Assembly (NCBI GenBank): GCA_963715195.1 | Contig: CAVQRT010000002.1 | Location: forward strand, 64,001-128,000 | Length of the DNA: 64,000 nucleotides | Source of the DNA: Thermodesulfovibrionales bacterium | Lineage (GTDB): Bacteria > Nitrospirota > Thermodesulfovibrionia > Thermodesulfovibrionales > SM23-35 | Direction: 5' to 3' | Shown: in pieces, positions 1,204 to 9,992 of the stretch | Layout of the letters: each line of letters opens with the position of its first letter | How positions within the stretch are numbered: the stretch's first letter is position 1 | Notes under the pieces: model-generated | The model's input: only the letters and a program-made list of their open reading frames with translations | The model's database searches: none | What the model was told of the DNA's origin: nothing | Program-made: the position numbers and the translations under genes

Positions 1204-1671
1204 TTACATAAAACTCTTCTTTAGATTATTCAGCCAAATGATATGATTCTTTTCTTCCCTGATGATTGCATCAATAATCTTTTTCTCTAGTAATGCTTCA
1301 CGGAGTGTATAGTAGTAAAGGAGCGTCTCTCGCTCAAAGCACAGAGCAAAATCAATTGCTTCGGTTGCGGTTTTCACATGCTCAAGTGAGGGCAGACACT
1401 TGTCTTTCCCGAGAAAAAATTCCGAATCAACCAGCGCCCTGAGGTAAAGAGTTACCTCGCTCCACCCTTCCGGCTCTCCGTCATGTAATTGGCTCTCAAG
1501 CTTCAGGAAGCTTTCCCCGTGTCTAATCTCATGTGCGGCAAGCAGTTCGAAGAGTTTTTTTAATTCAGCCTTATCGTGGAATTTTTCCGCCATTCTGGTA
1601 TAGAACTCTTTCCCCAGTTTTTCTGTCTGAACCGCCTGTTCAACCACTTCTCTTACCGAAAACGTTATCAT
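1204..1671 (-). CDS. Ferritin-like (rubrerythrin family) di-iron protein
   Basis: AVQTEKLGKEFY...LAAHEIRH...FERETLLYY...EEKNH; probable start is MITFSVRE at 1671. Confidence 0.85.
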   Translation of the reverse strand: MITFSVREVVEQAVQTEKLGKEFYTRMAEKFHDKAELKKLFELLAAHEIRHGESFLKLESQLHDGEPEGWSEVTLYLRALVDSEFFLGKDKCLPSLEHVKTATEAIDFALCFERETLLYYYTLREALLEKKIIDAIIREEKNHIIWLNNLKKSFM

Positions 1672-1717
1672 GGCTTCTCCTTCATTTTTCCCGATGATTG
1701 GTTCTTCTCCATAAATT

Positions 1718-2083
1718 TTAGAGGATATCCCGGATATCGTCAATCGTTATGATATTACGCTCGACAAGATGCGTCAGGATGATAAATCCGCCGCAGGGAG
1801 GAGGTCTTTTTGTCCCTTGCCGATTGAGAGCTGGAGACTGTTTTGACAGGATGAAATCGCAGTCATTCTGATAAAAAGGGCACACCGTACACATATTCTG
1901 TATGAGCATCTCCTGCATACTATAGTCATATGCCCTGTCCGTCACGAAAAAATTGATGGCTTTTCCATTCTTCATCAATCTCTCAACAACCAGCAATCCC
2001 TGGCATTCAAGCTCTTCCTTCGTTGAAGGCTTGAAATAGGCACAGAAACTTCTGCACAGATTATCCCGCATTTGCTGATTCAA
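1718..2083 (-). CDS. Cys-rich hypothetical protein
   Basis: 121 aa, SD-like AAAGGA upstream, 7 Cys (CxxxC, CxxC, PPCGG). Confidence 0.7.
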   Translation of the reverse strand: MNQQMRDNLCRSFCAYFKPSTKEELECQGLLVVERLMKNGKAINFFVTDRAYDYSMQEMLIQNMCTVCPFYQNDCDFILSKQSPALNRQGTKRPPPCGGFIILTHLVERNIITIDDIRDIL

Positions 2084-2096
2084 AGGATGTTTCCTT

Positions 2097-2828
2097 TCAT
2101 AGGAGCGCTGTCAGGTTGCCCTTTCTGAGCTTCTCAAGAATCTCCTCCACAAGCATATGCATATCACCCATTTTGAACACAACATCCTCAGCCGGCAGAT
2201 AGACCATGTTTCTCAGTGATGTTTGAAGGGTGGTGAGAGACTGAATAACCCCGCCATACAATTCCTGTGCATCAGACCGTCTTTGCCGCAGGAGATTTTC
2301 TGCCTGCCTGCGCTCGATAATCTCACTTTCCAGTTCCGCAACAACCGCTTCGAGTTGCCTTGTCCGTTCCAGAACAAGGCCTTCCAGCCGTTCATTCCAC
2401 TGTTTGCTTTCTTCCTCGGTTTGTTTGCGCTTTGTGGTATCCCGAAATATGCCCATGAGACATCTCTCACCACCAATTGACAGGTGTGAACAACTGATAT
2501 CAACGTAAAGGATACCTCCCTGCTTGTTTTTCAACGGGATATCATGCACAATTGACACCTCGCCGCGGTTCATTCGTTCAAACTGATCAAGGACTTCAGC
2601 CAGGTGCTCCTGCGGATGAATATCGTAAACGGTCAAAGACGATAACTCTTCCTGACCGTATCCCAGCATGTCACAGATTGCCTGGTTTCCGGTAACGAGC
2701 ATCTTTTCTTCCGGGTCTGCCAGTAAAATTCCGTCAAAGGCACGATCAAAAATAGTCCTGAACCTCTCTTCACTTTCTTTCAGCGCATCCATGGTCTCAA
2801 TAAGGTTATGGTTGACTTGGTCACACAT
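2097..2828 (-). CDS. PAS-domain protein with a C-terminal coiled coil and no output domain
   Basis: ESEERFRTIFDRAFDGI...YDIHP...GIFRDTTKRKQTEE...LEGLVLERTRQLE. Confidence 0.8.
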   Translation of the reverse strand: MCDQVNHNLIETMDALKESEERFRTIFDRAFDGILLADPEEKMLVTGNQAICDMLGYGQEELSSLTVYDIHPQEHLAEVLDQFERMNRGEVSIVHDIPLKNKQGGILYVDISCSHLSIGGERCLMGIFRDTTKRKQTEEESKQWNERLEGLVLERTRQLEAVVAELESEIIERRQAENLLRQRRSDAQELYGGVIQSLTTLQTSLRNMVYLPAEDVVFKMGDMHMLVEEILEKLRKGNLTALL

Positions 2829-2926: not shown

Positions 2927-4093
2927 ATGCACTATTTTCTCTCACCAGATGCAGTTATAAAATTACTGGAACGCCCTTCCGTCTATAAGATAAGAACGGA
3001 TGAACTGTATGAACTGGATGACGTTTCTTTTGAATTTCTCCGGCAGTGCGGGTCTGAAACTGGATGCGAAGGATCCGATAGAATTTTTCTCGATTATTGT
3101 CTGAAAGAGGGGATCCTATCCATGGAGAAAGTATCGTTGAGACGGCCCGCACTCATAAAGGCACCAGAACCTTCACTCAGGTACCTCGAACTGCAGATCA
3201 CGAAAAACTGCAATCTCAGTTGCAGGCACTGTTATATCGGCAATCAGGGAAAAGATCAAGCAAAACTCGGAGAAAACAACGAGCTTTCCTTTGAACAGAT
3301 AAAGGCTGTATTCCATGAATTTGAAGAGATGCAGGGTCTCAGGGTTCTTATCAGCGGCGGAGAGCCTCTTACGCACAGCCAATTCAACAGGATCAATGCA
3401 ATACTCCCCAATTTTTTTTTCCGGAATATATTATTAACGAACGGCCTGCTGCTCACCCCAAGAATTTTGTCTGAGCTGAATGCCCACGAGATTCAGATCA
3501 GCATTGACGGACTTGAACATGCTCACGACTCCCTGAGAGGCAACGGAACATTCAGGTCGGCCATCGGAGCGGCCAGAAGGGCGCTTGATGCAGGGTTTCC
3601 GGTTTCGGTATCAACCATGGTTCATAGAAAAAATCTCAAAGATTTTGACGGCATGGAGAAGCTTTTCAAGGGACTCGGGATTAAAGACTGGACAGTCGAT
3701 GTGCCCTGCATAACCGGTAGGCTCAAAGAAAATCCCGAATTTCATATAAGGCCGGAGGTCGGCGGAAAATATCTCAGATACGGGTACGGTGAAGGGCTCC
3801 ATGCAGGGGCACCAGGATATGCATGCGGCACGCACCTCATGGCGGTCGCGGCAGACGGGAAAACTGCGAAGTGCTCGTTCTATGCGGACAGCCCGGTTGG
3901 AAGCATTGAGGAAGGGCTCAGAGCGAACTGGCAGAGGATAAAGCCTGTCAGACTCGAATCATTAAACTGTGATTGTCATTTTCTGAGTGAATGCAGGGGT
4001 GGCTGCAGATACAGGGCACTGCTTTCGGGGAATGAACTCGGTAAAGACTTTTACAGATGCCATTCATATGATATACTGCATTCAGATGAATGA
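2927..4093 (+). CDS. Radical SAM/SPASM protein with an ~80-aa N-terminal extension (possible RiPP recognition element)
   Basis: CNLSCRHC motif, ISGGEP, ISIDG; C-terminal CG...C...CDCx5CRGGC...C. Confidence 0.9.
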   Translation: MHYFLSPDAVIKLLERPSVYKIRTDELYELDDVSFEFLRQCGSETGCEGSDRIFLDYCLKEGILSMEKVSLRRPALIKAPEPSLRYLELQITKNCNLSCRHCYIGNQGKDQAKLGENNELSFEQIKAVFHEFEEMQGLRVLISGGEPLTHSQFNRINAILPNFFFRNILLTNGLLLTPRILSELNAHEIQISIDGLEHAHDSLRGNGTFRSAIGAARRALDAGFPVSVSTMVHRKNLKDFDGMEKLFKGLGIKDWTVDVPCITGRLKENPEFHIRPEVGGKYLRYGYGEGLHAGAPGYACGTHLMAVAADGKTAKCSFYADSPVGSIEEGLRANWQRIKPVRLESLNCDCHFLSECRGGCRYRALLSGNELGKDFYRCHSYDILHSDE

Positions 4094-4142
4094 AATGTCC
4101 GGATATGAAGTCCGGGTTCCTCTATGAAAGGGGGTGTCTCAC

Positions 4143-4205
4143 GTGACAATCAGGAAGATTTCTAAAAAGGCTTCTTTAACCTGTAAGTGCAAAAGTTCTT
4201 GTTAA
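4143..4205 (+). CDS. 20-aa Cys-rich peptide MTIRKISKKASLTCKCKSSC, candidate radical SAM substrate
   Basis: GTG start preceded by a strong SD (GAAAGGGGGTG, 4126-4136), 49 nt after the rSAM stop, followed by a terminator. Confidence 0.7.
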   Translation: MTIRKISKKASLTCKCKSSC

Positions 4206-4240
4206 CAAAATGTGATTAGCTGAAAGACATGGCTACTACA

Positions 4241-4280
4241 AAAAAGAAAAGGCTGGTTTGTGCACCAGCCTTTTCTTTTT
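4241..4280. terminator. Bidirectional intrinsic terminator
   Basis: Perfect 17-bp inverted repeat AAAAAGAAAAGGCTGGT / ACCAGCCTTTTCTTTTT between convergent genes. Confidence 0.85.
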
Positions 4281-4288
4281 AACCTTCC

Positions 4289-4474
4289 TTATTCCATAGT
4301 GATGGCTTGAGTCGGGCAGGTATCAGCGGCTTCCTGGCAGTTGCAGGTGTTGCATTTGTCAGGACCTATGACTTGTGCCTTTCCATCGTCACCAACTTTG
4401 AATACCTCGGGGCACATTTCTTCACATGTACCGCATCCCTCACACGCATCTTCGTTTACTACCGGTTTTGACAT
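4289..4474 (-). CDS. Small ferredoxin
   Basis: CEGCGTCEEMCP...CNTCNC...CPTQAI. Confidence 0.92.
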   Translation of the reverse strand: MSKPVVNEDACEGCGTCEEMCPEVFKVGDDGKAQVIGPDKCNTCNCQEAADTCPTQAITME

Positions 4475-4648: not shown

Positions 4649-5149
4649 TTACGCCCATGGAGTACCGCCGTCAACTATGCTGTGCTCTTCCCACATAAAC
4701 CAGTTGCCCGTATCCTTCATAAAATTATAGGTATTTGCAAAGATATCATAGTGCTGCTGCTCTTCCTGAATTAGTCTTTCAAAGAGCTGCTTCTCTTTCT
4801 GATTCCCCGCCTCCGTTTCAACCTGTCTGTAGAATGATATACCCTCCTGTTCCATCTGCATGGCTATCTGGAATGCTTCGAGCTCATCCTGCGTTGCAGC
4901 TACACGATGCATCATCGCATTCTTCATGGATTCGAAGATCGTCTGTACCTTTCTCATTGGGCTGACATCTTCCATCGTTATATCAACCTCTTTAAATATC
5001 TGGGAAAGCATCTTGAGATGCCTCTTTTCATCCTCCGTTACCGACTGAAACATTTTTTTCCCGGCAGGATGGCTTGTCTTCTCCGCAGCCTTCGAATAAA
5101 AATCTATTGCATCCTTCTCCATTTTTATTGCGATTTCTATAGCATTCAT
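4649..5149 (-). CDS. Ferritin-like (rubrerythrin family) protein
   Basis: AIKMEKDAIDFY...DEKRH...MEQEGISFY...EEQQH. Confidence 0.88.
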   Translation of the reverse strand: MNAIEIAIKMEKDAIDFYSKAAEKTSHPAGKKMFQSVTEDEKRHLKMLSQIFKEVDITMEDVSPMRKVQTIFESMKNAMMHRVAATQDELEAFQIAMQMEQEGISFYRQVETEAGNQKEKQLFERLIQEEQQHYDIFANTYNFMKDTGNWFMWEEHSIVDGGTPWA

Positions 5150-5246
5150 GGCGACCTCCTCGCTTCATCATTCAGCGTCTATTCAGTTTAATCCTTTTGT
5201 ACGATGATAATCAATTCGTTATTGCAATCGTTTATTATAAGAAACA

Positions 5247-6254
5247 ATGACACGTCCGCCTTTTCTACAGTGGTATCCAACGCTGCGGTGCAACCAGCAA
5301 TGCAGCTTCTGCTTCAATCAGAACATAACAACTGGATACGCAAACCGGGATATGTGCGAGAATGAAGCATACTCACTTGCGGAAACCCTCTTGCGCGAGG
5401 GCATCATGGAACTGGACATCCTTGGCGGGGAGCCGATGCTTATCCCCTACATGAAACATTTTCTCACCTATGCTACCAACGCCGGCCTGACGGTCAACAT
5501 CAGTACAAACGGCAGTCTTCCCGGAATGGTCCATGCGCTGGCGAAGATACCCACCCGTCTGTTAACCATAGGGTTCTCTCTCCATGGCTTTTCAGACACC
5601 CACAATGCAATCACCAGGTCTGATAATTTCAAGTCAGTCCTTGAAGGGATCAGAAGATCACTTGGGGAAGGAAAACATACAATCGTAAAGAGCGTTCTGA
5701 AAACTGCAAACAGACGGGAAATTCGAGGCCTCATCCACTATCTTAGGGAACGCGGTGTAAAAACATACTTTCTGCTGCATGAGGATATTCTCGGAAGGAA
5801 AAATCAAACAGAAAGTCTATCATTTCCCGATTTCATGACATATTTCTCTGCTCTCAGATCTGAATTGCATGATGTCATCGATATCGGATTCGTTGCAGCA
5901 TCCGGTTTTTTTAAATATGGGATGCTTGTTCACGGCCGTTGCGATGCCGGGACTGGAAAGCTTGCTGTACTTCCCGACGGTTCCACATTCCCCTGCAACC
6001 TGCTCTTTGGATTCAGGGAATTTTGCCTCGGCAATATCCTGAGGGACAACATCGAAACCATCCTGAAACATCCTGTACTTCAGAAATTCAGGACATTGCC
6101 CGGTAATATATGCAAATCCAGCAACTGTATCTATTCCGCAAACTGCAGTGGAGGATGTCCTGCTCACAGTTACGCTTTTTATCGTGATATTGGAATCAGG
6201 GACCCCCGCTGCCGCAATGATAAAAGAGACCCCAAAAAAAATGGTAATATATGA
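5247..6254 (+). CDS. Radical SAM/SPASM protein
   Basis: CNQQCSFC, LGGEP; SPASM CDAG...PDGSTFPC...Cx4Cx5CSGGC...DPRC. Confidence 0.9.
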   Translation: MTRPPFLQWYPTLRCNQQCSFCFNQNITTGYANRDMCENEAYSLAETLLREGIMELDILGGEPMLIPYMKHFLTYATNAGLTVNISTNGSLPGMVHALAKIPTRLLTIGFSLHGFSDTHNAITRSDNFKSVLEGIRRSLGEGKHTIVKSVLKTANRREIRGLIHYLRERGVKTYFLLHEDILGRKNQTESLSFPDFMTYFSALRSELHDVIDIGFVAASGFFKYGMLVHGRCDAGTGKLAVLPDGSTFPCNLLFGFREFCLGNILRDNIETILKHPVLQKFRTLPGNICKSSNCIYSANCSGGCPAHSYAFYRDIGIRDPRCRNDKRDPKKNGNI

Positions 6255-6331
6255 GAAAATTGAAGTGCGGTTTGTTACCGTGATCAATTCTTCGTGTAAC
6301 AAAGTTCATACTAAACCACAAAGGAGGTTTC

Positions 6332-7549
6332 ATGAAACCCACTGAAATAAAACCTGATATTTACTGGATTGGTGCGATCGATTGGGCGGTCAGAGATTTT
6401 CACGGTTATGTTACGCCAAATGGAACAACATACAATAATTATATTGTTCTCGACGAGCAGATAACCCTTTTTGACACGGTAAAACATGACTTTTCAGATG
6501 TGACCATACGAAATATCAAGAGCCTTATTGATCCATCAAAAATCAAAAACATCGTAATCAACCACATCGAGAACGACCATGTAAGCAGCATCGGGGATAT
6601 TATGCATCTTGCACCGGATGCAACAATTTATATTTCTGAAAGAGGGAAAAAGGGACTCGACAGGTTTTTCGATACATCGGCATGGGACATGAAGATTGTT
6701 AAGACCGGTGACACATTAAATATCGGCAAAAGAACGCTCCTTTTCCTTGAAACCCCGATGCTGCACTGGCCTGATTCCATGATGACCTATATCAAAGAAA
6801 ATAAGCTTCTGATCAGCCAGGATGCATTTGGACAGCATTATGCCTCTGCAGCGCGGTTTGACGATGAGTTCATAACCTGCTTTTCTCTGTCAGAATTAGA
6901 AGACGCCATCAAAGATTATTATGCCAATATCCTCATGCCGTTCGGTACCCTCATAAAAACCAAAATTGCAGAAATTCAGAAGTTGGGTCTTGAAATCGAC
7001 ATGATAGCCCCTGATCACGGGATTATATGGAGGAAGGACCCGTCCAAGATCATCAACATGTATCTTGATATGGCTGACGGGAAGGCAGACCTCAGAGTTG
7101 TTATCATTTATGACACCATGTGGCACAGTACAGAACATATGACTCTTCCCCTTATGCAGGGTATCAAAGATGAAGGGGTTGATGTCAAAATCGTAAAACT
7201 CAGAGCAAATCCAATCAGCCTGGCTGTAAAAGAGTTCTGGAAAGCGCGGGGATGCCTCCTCGGGTCGCCGACGCTGAATAATTCGATGTTCCCGACCATA
7301 GCTGAATTCCTGACATATCTGAAGGGTCTCAGGCCGAAAAATCGTCTGGTAGGTGCCTTCGGCAGCTATGGATGGATGGGTGGCGCGGTAAGGGATATCT
7401 GCGAAGAATTCAGAAAAATGGGGCTTGAGATGATCGAGGACGGGGTTCAGGTTGTGTACAAACCGTCTGCCGAGGACGAGAAACGGTGTTATGAGTTCGG
7501 GAGAGAATTCGCGAATAGGATCAAAGAATATCACAAGACCTACCAATAA
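6332..7549 (+). CDS. fprA: Flavodiiron protein (A-type flavoprotein, O2/NO reductase)
   Basis: GTTYNNY, NHIENDH, HWPDSM, SQDAFGQH, APDHG plus a flavodoxin domain (GSPTLN, AFGSYGW). Confidence 0.95.
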   Translation: MKPTEIKPDIYWIGAIDWAVRDFHGYVTPNGTTYNNYIVLDEQITLFDTVKHDFSDVTIRNIKSLIDPSKIKNIVINHIENDHVSSIGDIMHLAPDATIYISERGKKGLDRFFDTSAWDMKIVKTGDTLNIGKRTLLFLETPMLHWPDSMMTYIKENKLLISQDAFGQHYASAARFDDEFITCFSLSELEDAIKDYYANILMPFGTLIKTKIAEIQKLGLEIDMIAPDHGIIWRKDPSKIINMYLDMADGKADLRVVIIYDTMWHSTEHMTLPLMQGIKDEGVDVKIVKLRANPISLAVKEFWKARGCLLGSPTLNNSMFPTIAEFLTYLKGLRPKNRLVGAFGSYGWMGGAVRDICEEFRKMGLEMIEDGVQVVYKPSAEDEKRCYEFGREFANRIKEYHKTYQ

Positions 7550-7565
7550 GAAAGGAGACTCATAA

Positions 7566-7886
7566 ATGCCTAAATTTCCAGAACAATATCAAAGAATCAG
7601 AAAAAGGTTCAAGAAATTTTTTTCCGCGGTCGATAATCTCGGGAAGGCAACACGGTCTGCTGGGCCAATTAATACAAAAACTTCTCATTTGATACAGCTC
7701 GCCGCTGCTGCTGCTATCAGATCAGAGGGATCAGTTCATTCTCATACAAGAAGGGCACTGGACGAAGGAGCAAAACCGGACGAAATATATCATGCCTTAA
7801 TCCTGCTCACAAGCATCATCGGATTTCCCACCGTATCTGCAGCATTAAGCTGGGCTGATGATGTTATTCAAAAGCGTAAGGGATAG
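7566..7886 (+). CDS. Carboxymuconolactone decarboxylase (CMD/AhpD-like) family protein
   Basis: LIQLAAAAAIRSEGSVHSHTRRAL...EIYHALILLTSIIGFP. Confidence 0.85.
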   Translation: MPKFPEQYQRIRKRFKKFFSAVDNLGKATRSAGPINTKTSHLIQLAAAAAIRSEGSVHSHTRRALDEGAKPDEIYHALILLTSIIGFPTVSAALSWADDVIQKRKG

Positions 7887-7925
7887 GAATAAACCTTAAA
7901 GAAGAATTACCACTAAGGAGGCACA

Positions 7926-8420
7926 ATGTCTAAGACAGAAAAAAATCTTCAGGATGCATTTGCCGGCGAATCACAGGCGAACAGAAAATATCTTGCTTTT
8001 GCAAAAAAAGCCGATGCCGAAGGGTATAAACAGGTTGCCAAGCTCTTTAGAGCTACTGCAGAGGCCGAAACGGTTCATGCATTGAATCATCTGAGAGAAC
8101 TCGGAGGAGTGAAAACCACAAAGGAAAACCTCGAGGCTGCCGTCGGCGGGGAGACGTATGAAGTGGAGAATATGTATCCTCCGATGATTCAGGATGCCCT
8201 GACAGAGGAGAAAAAAGGTGCGCAGAACAGCTTCATGTTTGCATATGAAGTGGAAAAAATTCACGCAGCACTCTATACAAAAGCACTGGAAGCGCTCGGT
8301 AAAAACAAAGAGGTTGATTATTATGTCTGCCAGGTATGCGGCAACACCGTAGAAGGGGAGCCGCCAGACCAGTGCCCGATATGCAAAGCGATGAAAAAGA
8401 TGTTCAAGAAGATGGAGTAA
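7926..8420 (+). CDS. rbr: Rubrerythrin
   Basis: AFAGESQANRKY, AETVHA, EKIH, C-terminal CQVCG...CPIC. Confidence 0.93.
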   Translation: MSKTEKNLQDAFAGESQANRKYLAFAKKADAEGYKQVAKLFRATAEAETVHALNHLRELGGVKTTKENLEAAVGGETYEVENMYPPMIQDALTEEKKGAQNSFMFAYEVEKIHAALYTKALEALGKNKEVDYYVCQVCGNTVEGEPPDQCPICKAMKKMFKKME

Positions 8421-8483
8421 GAGATTCATATATATTCTCTATTTCATTTCTGTTCCTGTAGAATAGCTGGAAAGGGGTTTTCT

Positions 8484-9992
8484 ATGAGATTATTCAGACG
8501 CGCTATTTTTGTGCTTGCGTGCTTACTTCTCTCCTCCACACATGACTCGTCAGCTTCAGAGGAAACACACAAGCAAGCTTTGCTCAGTCAACAGACACAG
8601 GGCTGCATTGGCTGTCACAGCATGTATACGCCTGGGATTGTGCATGACTGGATGACAAGCAGGCACTCGAAGACAATTCCGGGGGACGCAATCAAAAAAT
8701 CCCCTCTTGAAAAACGAATCTCTGCCATGAGTCTTCCGCAGACTCTTCAGGACTATTCCGTCGGCTGCTATGAATGCCATAGCCTGAATCCTAATATCCA
8801 CAAGGATAACTTCAACCATATGGGGTATAACATAAATATCGTGGTCACCCCGAATGATTGCAAAACCTGTCATCCCTCAGAGGTACAACAGTTTGCGGGC
8901 TCAAAAAAGTCATACGCCTATAACAATCTCATGGGTAATCCCGTTTACTATACACTCGTGAGCACCATAACCGGTATGAGGAGATTTAAGGAGAATCAAC
9001 TTTTTGCTGAAAAGCCTTCTGACGCGACACTGCACGAGACCTGCCTTGGATGCCACGGCACCAAGGTGGAGTCGAAAGGACTGAAAACCGTTTCAACCAA
9101 AATAGGAGATCTGCAGTTCCCTGACCTGACAAACTGGCCCAACCAGGGCGTTGGCAGGATAAATCCCGATGGGAGTACCGGAGCCTGCACGGCCTGTCAC
9201 CCGAGACATGGCTTTTTAATCGAGGTCGCTCGAAAGCCCTACACCTGTTCACAGTGTCACCTTGAACCCGATGTCCCAGCGTGGAACGTTTACCGGGAGA
9301 GTAAGCACGGGAACATCTATTCCTCAAAATATCAGCAGTGGAATTTTGATTCCGTGCCGTGGGTCATCGGTAAGGATTTTAATGCGCCAACATGTGCGAC
9401 CTGTCATAACAGCCTCGTTGTTTCTCCAGACAAAACCGTTGTCGCCGAAAGGACACATAATTTTGGGGCACGGTTATGGGTCAGGCTCTTCGGGCTTATT
9501 TACAGTCATCCGCAACCAAAGTCAGGTGATACAACTATAATCAAGAACAAAGATGGACTTCCATTACCTGTGACATTTGCCGGTGAACCGGCATCAGAAT
9601 ACCTGATCGACAATTCCGAACAGGCCAACCGTATGACTGTCATGAGCGGCATCTGTAGAAATTGCCACGGGTCGAGGTGGACGAATAGCCATTTTACAAA
9701 ACTGGACAGCACCATCAAGGAGACGAATGGCATGACTGCTACAGCAACAAATCTGATGGCTGAGGCATGGGAAAAGGGAATCGAAGATAAGACTAACCCG
9801 TTCGATGAGTCTTTGGAGCAGATGTGGGCCAGTCAGTGGCTGTTTTACTGCAACTCGATACGGTATGCCTCGGCCATGACCGGCGCACCAGATTATGCTT
9901 CTTTCAAAAATGGCTGGTGGTACCTCAATAGAAATCTGCAGCATATGCAGAACTGGATGGAATTCAAAAAAGAAGTCAACGAGAAGGACTAA
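8484..9992 (+). CDS. Periplasmic octaheme cytochrome c, hydroxylamine oxidoreductase (HAO) family
   Basis: Signal peptide; eight CxxCH motifs (CIGCH, CYECH, CKTCH, CLGCH, CTACH, CSQCH, CATCH, CRNCH); GRINPDGS, ESKHG. Confidence 0.88.
   Translation: MRLFRRAIFVLACLLLSSTHDSSASEETHKQALLSQQTQGCIGCHSMYTPGIVHDWMTSRHSKTIPGDAIKKSPLEKRISAMSLPQTLQDYSVGCYECHSLNPNIHKDNFNHMGYNINIVVTPNDCKTCHPSEVQQFAGSKKSYAYNNLMGNPVYYTLVSTITGMRRFKENQLFAEKPSDATLHETCLGCHGTKVESKGLKTVSTKIGDLQFPDLTNWPNQGVGRINPDGSTGACTACHPRHGFLIEVARKPYTCSQCHLEPDVPAWNVYRESKHGNIYSSKYQQWNFDSVPWVIGKDFNAPTCATCHNSLVVSPDKTVVAERTHNFGARLWVRLFGLIYSHPQPKSGDTTIIKNKDGLPLPVTFAGEPASEYLIDNSEQANRMTVMSGICRNCHGSRWTNSHFTKLDSTIKETNGMTATATNLMAEAWEKGIEDKTNPFDESLEQMWASQWLFYCNSIRYASAMTGAPDYASFKNGWWYLNRNLQHMQNWMEFKKEVNEKD

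Follow-up and report, generated by a model that had tools for sequence, protein, structure and literature searches.

A 64,000-nucleotide (nt) window of a Thermodesulfovibrionales genome (positions 64,001 to 128,000 of contig CAVQRT010000002.1, assembly GCA_963715195.1) contains a gene for an enzyme of the radical S-adenosylmethionine (SAM) type and, directly downstream of it, a 20-codon open reading frame (ORF) that encodes a Cys-rich peptide; a gene for a protein with seven conserved Cys (7-Cys protein) lies close by. We think it fairly probable that these three genes form a conserved peptide-maturation module of strict anaerobes, composed of a 20-residue precursor, an enzyme that joins an RRE (recognition element of RiPPs, peptides made on ribosomes and modified after translation) to radical SAM and SPASM domains, and a Cys-module protein. 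Our analysis established that the peptide gene is real, that the components are linked, and, at the level of the model, how the enzyme is built from its domains; that the peptide is a substrate of the enzyme, we infer from the genomic comparisons described below. A preliminary description of this DNA had listed the enzyme ORF, a 49-nt gap, a Shine-Dalgarno (SD) site, the GTG-started 20-codon ORF, and a terminator, and we found every one of these elements in place (Table 1), with the enzyme gene stopping at 4091-4093 and the peptide gene starting at 4143.

In order to find homologs of the short ORF, a degenerate DNA pattern for T-C-K-C-K-x-S-C-stop was run on a genome collection. It matched at least 119 genomic loci, against about 1 expected by chance by our own estimate, and a basic leader was in frame in all 119 matches listed. 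In leader codons 2 to 12, which the pattern does not fix, the mean column entropy was 0.83 at the first, 0.85 at the second, and 1.55 at the third codon position, compared with 1.75 to 1.95 in the flanks. Among the 117 distinct peptide sequences listed, Ile3 was kept in 116, via three codons, and Lys5 in 113, and the start codon stood at one fixed position (ATG in 102, GTG in 6, and TTG in 2). All three stop codons were in use at the stop position, and a purine-rich A..G.GG block was conserved 7 to 12 nt before the start in 115 distinct loci. The alternative GTG start at 4134 given by the ORF listing was rejected, because the alignment of homologs fixes the start codons at 4143. From these comparisons, we conclude that the 20-codon ORF is a real gene.

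An exact look-up in a collection of 15 billion proteins showed that nine of nine peptide sequences were absent, and therefore gene callers do not report them. Small parts of the locus were present as contigs in three RNA libraries. A single contig, X3 from a sediment library, covered the peptide gene; it spans 3993-4243 and has four differences, TAA having become TAG through one of them. Carry-over of DNA into these libraries is possible, and X3 weakly supports transcription of the peptide gene. On the plus strand, inside the 3' end of the enzyme gene, a promoter-like site (4050-4077; TTTACA, a 16-nt spacer, and TATACT with an upstream TG) matches 10 of 12 consensus positions about 65 nt before the peptide start; this site, a consensus match only, could give the peptide gene a separate transcript. 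The spacer between the two genes can fold into two small hairpins (4098-4134), the second of which pairs CCUCU with the SD site. This SD-sequestering hairpin was dropped as a general feature because the fold was not significant (z -1.8, reached by 10 of 200 shuffles) and the upstream sequence was not conserved across 115 loci. Downstream of the peptide gene, the terminator hairpin had a folding energy of -29.2 kcal/mol (z -4.9), with none of 200 shuffles folding equally well, and is common to the peptide gene and the convergent ferredoxin gene.

We then evaluated whether the peptide and the enzyme occur together. A search of 41 related genomes with the enzyme, using E < 1e-100 as the threshold for an orthologue, separated 32 positive from 9 negative genomes; the relatives are kin and not independent, so we give counts only. 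The enzyme orthologue was followed by a homologous peptide ORF in 21 of 30 related loci, two further loci ending at a contig edge, which bears out the earlier expectation that a short ORF would be conserved downstream of the enzyme homologs. In bacteria, the peptide after the enzyme has the form M[TK]I[KR]KVSK..xxxTCKCK[SG]SC. The strict pattern with one mismatch allowed found the peptide in 30 of the 41 relatives, every one of them enzyme positive, and a relaxed pattern added one more genome (G032), which has two Ile-Cys variant peptides. The relaxed pattern found no peptide in the enzyme-positive genome G018, whose enzyme locus reaches the contig end 137 nt after the gene. In the 9 enzyme-negative genomes, true-looking peptide genes were present in G036 (93% complete) only; relaxed-pattern hits in two others (L218-L220) were not peptide-like and were rejected. 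The peptide was thus found in 31 of 32 enzyme-positive genomes versus 1 of 9 enzyme-negative genomes. Starting from the peptide gave a similar picture: among the 69 pattern loci whose upstream sequence reached 1400 nt or more, 52 had the enzyme on the same strand with its end less than 400 nt upstream, and the C terminus of the enzyme was visible in 31 of the 50 shorter loci.

Some genomes contained additional, unlinked copies of the peptide gene. Genome G010 has five peptide genes, and the genome of the window itself (G000) has two, the second of which (C30:286335-286397, L188:3936-3998), encoding MTIRKVPKRASLTCKCKSSC, has its own SD site and is followed by genes for a rubredoxin and a nitroreductase-family protein. 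Unlinked copies adjoin genes for rubredoxin, glutaredoxin, superoxide dismutase (SOD), and cytochrome c, and in one case a gene for an HMA-domain P-type ATPase; this copy (L179, G029:C1:180819-183845), ending in TCKCKGSC, is divergent from the ATPase gene and next to that of a YwiC-like protein. The two unlinked copies of G032 stand among unrelated housekeeping genes. The two variants of G036 (L221 and L222, C89:414-5164) end in TCKCHSSC and SCKCHQSC, and their neighbors encode a thioredoxin reductase (TrxR)-like oxidoreductase, a DUF5676 protein with two transmembrane segments, an ICMT/PEMT-family methyltransferase, and a YHS/TRASH metal-binding protein. It is suggestive to find an ICMT-like enzyme close to peptides that end in Cys. 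Another peptide locus (L095) is on a 7.8-kb contig binned as Candidatus Wolfebacteria, a likely binning error, since that 0.6-Mb genome lacks an orthologue of the enzyme and the peptide is of the Nitrospirota type. Finally, the enzyme orthologue of G009 (L027, C74) has three TGA and one TAG codons within the match, and the 7-Cys gene of this genome is in two pieces; the peptide gene is intact.

The system extends to archaea. We screened 96 genomes from the class that holds the Archaeoglobaceae hits, and 27 of them contained a full-length relative of the enzyme (42 to 100% identity to the archaeal query). The strict peptide pattern matched in the five closest of these only. Among the other 22 loci, 16 were examined, and 15 had a variant peptide, of the form MKVKKVERR..G[IV]CKC[NHGSA]xSC(A), 130 to 200 nt upstream of the enzyme, giving 20 of 21 archaeal enzyme loci with a peptide. 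The gene order in Archaeoglobi is the reverse of the bacterial one: peptide, mini-Cys protein, and enzyme. The core common to bacteria and archaea is C-K-C-x-x-[ST]-C, since some peptides lack the second Lys or the Thr that precedes the first Cys. In all 21 loci, an ORF of about 55 to 60 amino acids (aa), of the form IC..CDFYKP.D..LEC.AFKIL, lies between the peptide and the enzyme. In one archaeal genome (L198), the pair of peptide and mini-Cys genes is also duplicated away from the enzyme. The linkage of a precursor gene to a modifying enzyme by which RiPP systems are generally recognized was found here in 52 of 69 pattern loci and 20 of 21 archaeal loci, and in 31 of 32 versus 1 of 9 related genomes.

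In an alignment of 60 sequences of the enzyme family, the CxxxCxxC motif (C95, C99, and C102) was invariant, as were seven Cys of the C-terminal region (C300, C316, C348, C350, C356, C360, and C378). Pfam Radical_SAM (PF04055) matched with 70.7 bits against a cut-off of 29.5. SPASM domains are recognized by seven Cys in the arrangement C-x9-15-G-x4-C ... CxxCx5Cx3C ... C, which hold two auxiliary clusters, and by a fold like that of solved SPASM enzymes; the enzyme has both, with CxCx5Cx3C as its central motif, CxC replacing CxxC. The AlphaFold2 (AF2) model was of high confidence (pLDDT, from the predicted local distance difference test, 89; predicted TM score 0.90), and its C-terminal region aligned with SuiB, CteB, and anSME up to model residues 380-386. 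The N terminus was modeled with pLDDT values above 90 as strands 3-5, 9-13, 17-21, and 26-29 and helices 32-41 and 52-60. The best structural matches of the model were maturases of RiPPs, and VIA-align gave Z scores of 24.4 with SkfB (root mean square deviation [rmsd] 5.1, 316 residues aligned, model 7-343), 24.4 with SuiB (rmsd 4.1, 348 aligned, model 2-380), and 22.5 with CteB (rmsd 3.1, 278 aligned). The alignment of the family profile with CteB begins at position 15 of the profile and residue 14 of the chain and thus covers the N-terminal domain of CteB. Together, these data model the enzyme as an RRE-like N-terminal domain (residues 1 to about 85), a radical SAM core, and a SPASM-like C-terminal domain. 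The preliminary description had pointed to a SPASM-type enzyme with an RRE at its N terminus. The SPASM proposal holds up, as the seven invariant Cys are arranged as in SPASM domains; the first ~85 residues, modeled as strands and helices, match the ends with which SuiB (by structure) and CteB (by profile) bind their leaders.

The enzyme reached no curated NCBIfam cut-off. Its best model was WgkB (95 bits versus 650), and it scored 75.4 bits versus 265 with MftC, 57.3 versus 381 with PqqE, and 51.5 versus 340 with PapB; TIGR03974 (SCIFF maturase) was not among the best 25 models. A comparison of the peptide with the NCBIfam models, including the precursor model TIGR03973, returned no family at E <= 10.

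The third component, the 7-Cys protein, which the preliminary description had overlooked, contains C10, C14, C27, C65, C68, C75, and C97, all invariant in an alignment of 35 homologs. The same protein was present in 28 of the 41 relatives, all enzyme positive, and in none of the 9 enzyme-negative ones; with this query, it was not found in 4 of the 32 enzyme-positive genomes. A 7-Cys ORF of about 110 to 120 aa lay upstream of the enzyme, and divergent from it, in 31 of 109 loci, a set made up of 79 collection loci and 30 from the relatives, in which the same species may be counted twice. The profile of the archaeal mini-Cys protein matched the C-terminal half of the bacterial 7-Cys protein (hhalign probability 96.7%, E 3.8e-10); because this one-module profile matches one half, the bacterial protein seems to consist of two tandem copies of a CxxCxFYK...C..F..L module. 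Neither Pfam nor NCBIfam had a family that matched the 7-Cys protein. Of 214 database relatives, all 120 listed are unnamed or annotated as hypothetical protein, and in the ESM Atlas, only clusters of hypothetical proteins from Nitrospirota and Thermodesulfobacteriota came up. The AF2 model is all helical (pLDDT 85.5), and the best matches in fold searches had a Foldseek E value of 3 and a VIA-align Z score of 4.6 (rmsd 3.2, 77 residues aligned), which is not proof of a new fold. Prediction of a complex between the enzyme and the 7-Cys protein (score 0.00, mark 0.32) weighs neither for nor against binding.

We propose that the precursor has two parts, with M-x-I-[KR]-K-V-[ST]-K-K as its basic leader and C-K-C-x-x-S-C as its C-terminal core, and that the partner protein is built from one (archaea) or two (bacteria) CxxCxFYK...C modules. 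The leader would dock on the N-terminal domain of the enzyme, and the cluster bound by C95, C99, and C102 would cleave SAM reductively, with the adjacent ferredoxin as a possible source of electrons. The resulting 5'-deoxyadenosyl radical would take a hydrogen from a core residue, and the two SPASM clusters would hold the substrate thiolate and accept an electron. The predicted outcome is at least one intramolecular cross-link, most likely Cys thioethers onto an invariant Lys or Ser/Thr; the Thr that precedes the first Cys is unconserved in archaea and thus not obligatory as an acceptor. The cross-linked product would then stay in the cell with the Cys-module protein. Among the 12 window ORFs compared with Pfam, there was no protease and no exporter, in agreement with the preliminary description. 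Since the surroundings encode neither, and since the peptide shows the conservation of a housekeeping gene, the product is probably intracellular.

Several points weigh against a maturation module. The substrate relationship is drawn from genomics only, and the peptide copies were unlinked from the enzyme in 17 of the 69 loci. G036, although 93% complete, has its two variant peptide genes and no enzyme orthologue was found in it, and a 1.5-Mb metagenome-assembled genome (G042) carries the peptide without the enzyme; the peptide can thus exist without the enzyme, unless these assemblies are incomplete. Pfam SPASM (PF13186) gave no hit for the enzyme of the window and matched 3 of 60 family members at E <= 1, with a best value of 0.045. 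The N-terminal model has four strands and two helices, compared with three and three in a textbook RRE, and the Pfam PqqD model gave no hit in a scan of the whole protein. If all three Cys became thioethers, metal binding would be lost, which fits the metal contexts of some copies badly. The kinship of the genomes compared and the possible double counting of species among the 109 loci go in the same direction.

The main rival is that the peptide is an unmodified metal-binding or redox micro-protein, the thiolates of CxCxxxC serving Cu, Fe, or Zn; the enzyme and the Cys-module protein would then co-occur with it through a pathway or a regulon, or the peptide would deliver or receive a metal or a cluster. 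This would account for the dispersal of several copies per genome (five in G010 and two in G000), for the unlinked copies near rubredoxin, glutaredoxin, SOD, and cytochrome c genes, for the copy beside the HMA-domain P-type ATPase (L179), and for the enzyme-less variants of G036, which stand beside the YHS/TRASH protein, the ICMT-like methyltransferase, and the TrxR-like gene. However, the modeled enzyme has fused leader-binding-type and SPASM domains, as peptide maturases do, and peptide and enzyme are tightly adjacent in two gene orders in two domains of life. Furthermore, the N-terminal half of the peptide is conserved like a recognition leader, for which a mere metal ligand would have no need. 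We therefore consider this rival unlikely, and yet the one to be taken most seriously.

A second alternative, which we hold to be improbable, is that the Cys-module protein is the true substrate of the enzyme and the 20-mer is accessory or regulatory. It draws on an analogy: in Methanococcus voltae, CrpC cross-links the Cys-rich CrpA (PMC13692751). In archaea, the Cys-module gene adjoins that of the enzyme in 21 of 21 loci, and in bacteria, it is divergently upstream in 31 of 109; it was found in 28 of 32 enzyme-positive versus 0 of 9 enzyme-negative relatives. Nevertheless, it was missed with this query in 4 of the 32 enzyme-positive relatives, and the peptide follows the enzyme more closely (31 of 32 genomes). 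The Cys-module protein also lacks a leader-like extension, and its invariant Cys sit in a confident helical model, which would suit a metal or cluster site better than a flexible core. That the short ORF is untranslated, with the conserved stretch acting as regulatory RNA or as the enzyme gene's terminator region, is hardly credible: its very small size, the nine of nine sequences absent from the protein collection, and the nonsignificant hairpin (z -1.8) that can pair the SD site of the window with the upstream CCUCU speak for it, but codon-position periodicity in the leader, amino acids preserved through synonymous changes, a fixed SD-ATG distance, the use of all three stops at one position, and the location of the ORF, which can be unlinked and in archaea lies on the opposite side of the enzyme, speak against it.

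The features of the locus are collected in Table 1. In the window, a gene for a PAS-domain protein separates the 7-Cys and enzyme genes; in many other loci, the two genes are directly divergent, without this insert. After the enzyme itself, the commonest neighbor in the 109 loci was a rubrerythrin-like cluster (40 loci), followed by TPR proteins (24), a small ferredoxin (23), Fe/Mn SOD (20), nitroreductase (14), and peroxiredoxin (8); in the 23 ferredoxin loci, the homolog was convergently downstream of the peptide, as in the window. The locus is surrounded by what amounts to an oxygen-detoxification island (window 1204-1743 and 4649-9992). A second radical SAM/SPASM protein was present in 21 of the 41 relatives, all positive for the first enzyme, and in at least 14 of the 21, the two genes shared a contig and were no more than about 4 kb apart; it was also within the flanks of 11 of 80 genome-collection loci. 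It matched no curated NCBIfam family and is a candidate for a second tailoring enzyme of the system. The copy of G020 (C34:99262-100221) has two in-frame stops. With the 7-Cys partner and often this second radical SAM/SPASM protein belonging to the neighborhood, the word minimal, which the preliminary description applied to the system, had to be given up.

Table 1. Features of the locus, in window positions.
Feature	Position	Strand	Basis
Rubrerythrin/ferritin-like gene	1204-1743	-	Pfam
7-Cys partner protein, 121 aa, P0125	1718-2083	-	Translation and homolog alignment
PAS-domain protein with coiled-coil tail, between the 7-Cys and radical SAM genes	2097-2828	-	
Radical SAM enzyme, 388 aa, P0001	2927-4093	+	Pfam Radical_SAM at residues 90-243, sole Pfam match
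SD site of the peptide gene, GAAAGGGGGTG	4126-4136	+	Sequence
20-codon precursor-like peptide gene, MTIRKISKKASLTCKCKSSC, GTG start, stop 4203-4205	4143-4205	+	Sequence and homologs
Bidirectional intrinsic terminator, 17-bp stem and flanking A/T tracts	4241-4279	.	Folding
4Fe-4S ferredoxin, 61 aa, candidate electron donor	4289-4474	-	Pfam Fer4_13, 1.2e-11
Rubrerythrin/ferritin-like protein, 166 aa, neighborhood context	4649-5149	-	Pfam Rubrerythrin, 2.1e-18
Second radical SAM/SPASM protein, 335 aa, without N-terminal extension	5247-6254	+	Pfam Radical_SAM and SPASM
Flavodiiron protein	6332-7549		Pfam
CMD/AhpD-like protein	7566-7886		Pfam
Rubrerythrin with rubredoxin domain	7926-8420		Pfam
Multiheme cytochrome	8484-9992		Pfam

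Judging by its gene neighborhood, the module may act in redox, oxygen, or metal stress. A bolder version of the maturation module, which we advance only tentatively, is that the three genes provide strict anaerobes with a redox or metal cofactor derived from a peptide, a counterpart of pyrroloquinoline quinone (PQQ) or mycofactocin; the cross-linked 20-mer would be bound to the CxxCxFYK protein, itself of a kind not seen before, and serve in defense against oxygen or metal stress, and the system would either be ancient or have passed laterally between sulfate-reducing Nitrospirota and Archaeoglobi.

The enzyme, the peptide, and the partner all lack a fitting curated model, and we found no description of the motif or the system in the literature covered, which excludes subscription journals and supplements. 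If modified as proposed, the peptide would be among the shortest known precursors of radical SAM enzymes and one of the few conserved in a housekeeping-like manner across Bacteria and Archaea; such conservation points to a cellular role (cofactor, metal handling, or redox stress) rather than to an antibiotic. Standard gene callers do not see the gene, and it is widespread in sulfate-reducing and subsurface lineages of environmental importance; with the system comes a family of partner proteins for which there is neither a Pfam or NCBIfam model nor a structural match. The pair is small enough for direct reconstitution, and homologs occur in complete, single-contig genomes of Archaeoglobi and Nitrospirota, some of them perhaps from cultured strains, so the question is directly testable.

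The preliminary description had likened the system to the SCIFF/ranthipeptide family (CteA-CteB, Tte1186a-Tte1186, and PapA-PapB), and the two have features in common: in both, the gene of a Cys-rich precursor, putative in the present case, adjoins that of an enzyme with RRE (here as modeled), radical SAM, and SPASM domains, the precursor is conserved over many species and not strain specific, and a protease or exporter is not obligatory. CteB is also among the best structural matches of the enzyme (Z 22.5). Membership in this family was not sustained, however, as its NCBIfam models were not matched. SCIFF precursors have about 45 residues and six Cys, whereas the precursor here has 20 residues and three Cys; the SPASM motif here is CxCx5Cx3C, and a Cys-module partner is added. 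SCIFF systems are known from clostridia, in contrast to the Nitrospirota and Archaeoglobi that host the present one.

The sactipeptide maturases SkfB and AlbA form thioethers on Cys-containing peptides, and SkfB was the best match of the enzyme by sequence profile (4e-24) and by Foldseek (1.2e-14), and the joint best with SuiB by VIA-align (Z 24.4). Identity is about 19%, however, no immunity or export genes are present here, the peptide is far shorter and is conserved across phyla, and its chemistry is predicted only. Another parallel is CrpC of the anaerobe Methanococcus voltae, an RRE-radical SAM-SPASM enzyme which installs ranthionine cross-links on its Cys-rich neighbor CrpA and is assigned to TIGR04463 (PMC13692751). 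The enzyme of the window, as modeled, shares this architecture, an anaerobic host, and a Cys-rich gene neighbor. In contrast, TIGR04463 was not among the best 25 models for the enzyme described here, and CrpA is a large repeat protein, whereas the candidate substrate here is a 20-mer.

With PQQ (PqqA with PqqE-PqqD) and mycofactocin (MftA with MftC-MftB), the differences are in the core, made here of Cys, Lys, and Ser instead of Glu/Tyr or Val-Tyr, and in the accessory protein, which here is a helical Cys protein without a match and is not PqqD-like. What the putative module shares with these two systems is a very short conserved precursor modified near its C terminus by a radical SAM-SPASM enzyme, a product used inside the cell, a small accessory protein that accompanies the pair, and a redox context.

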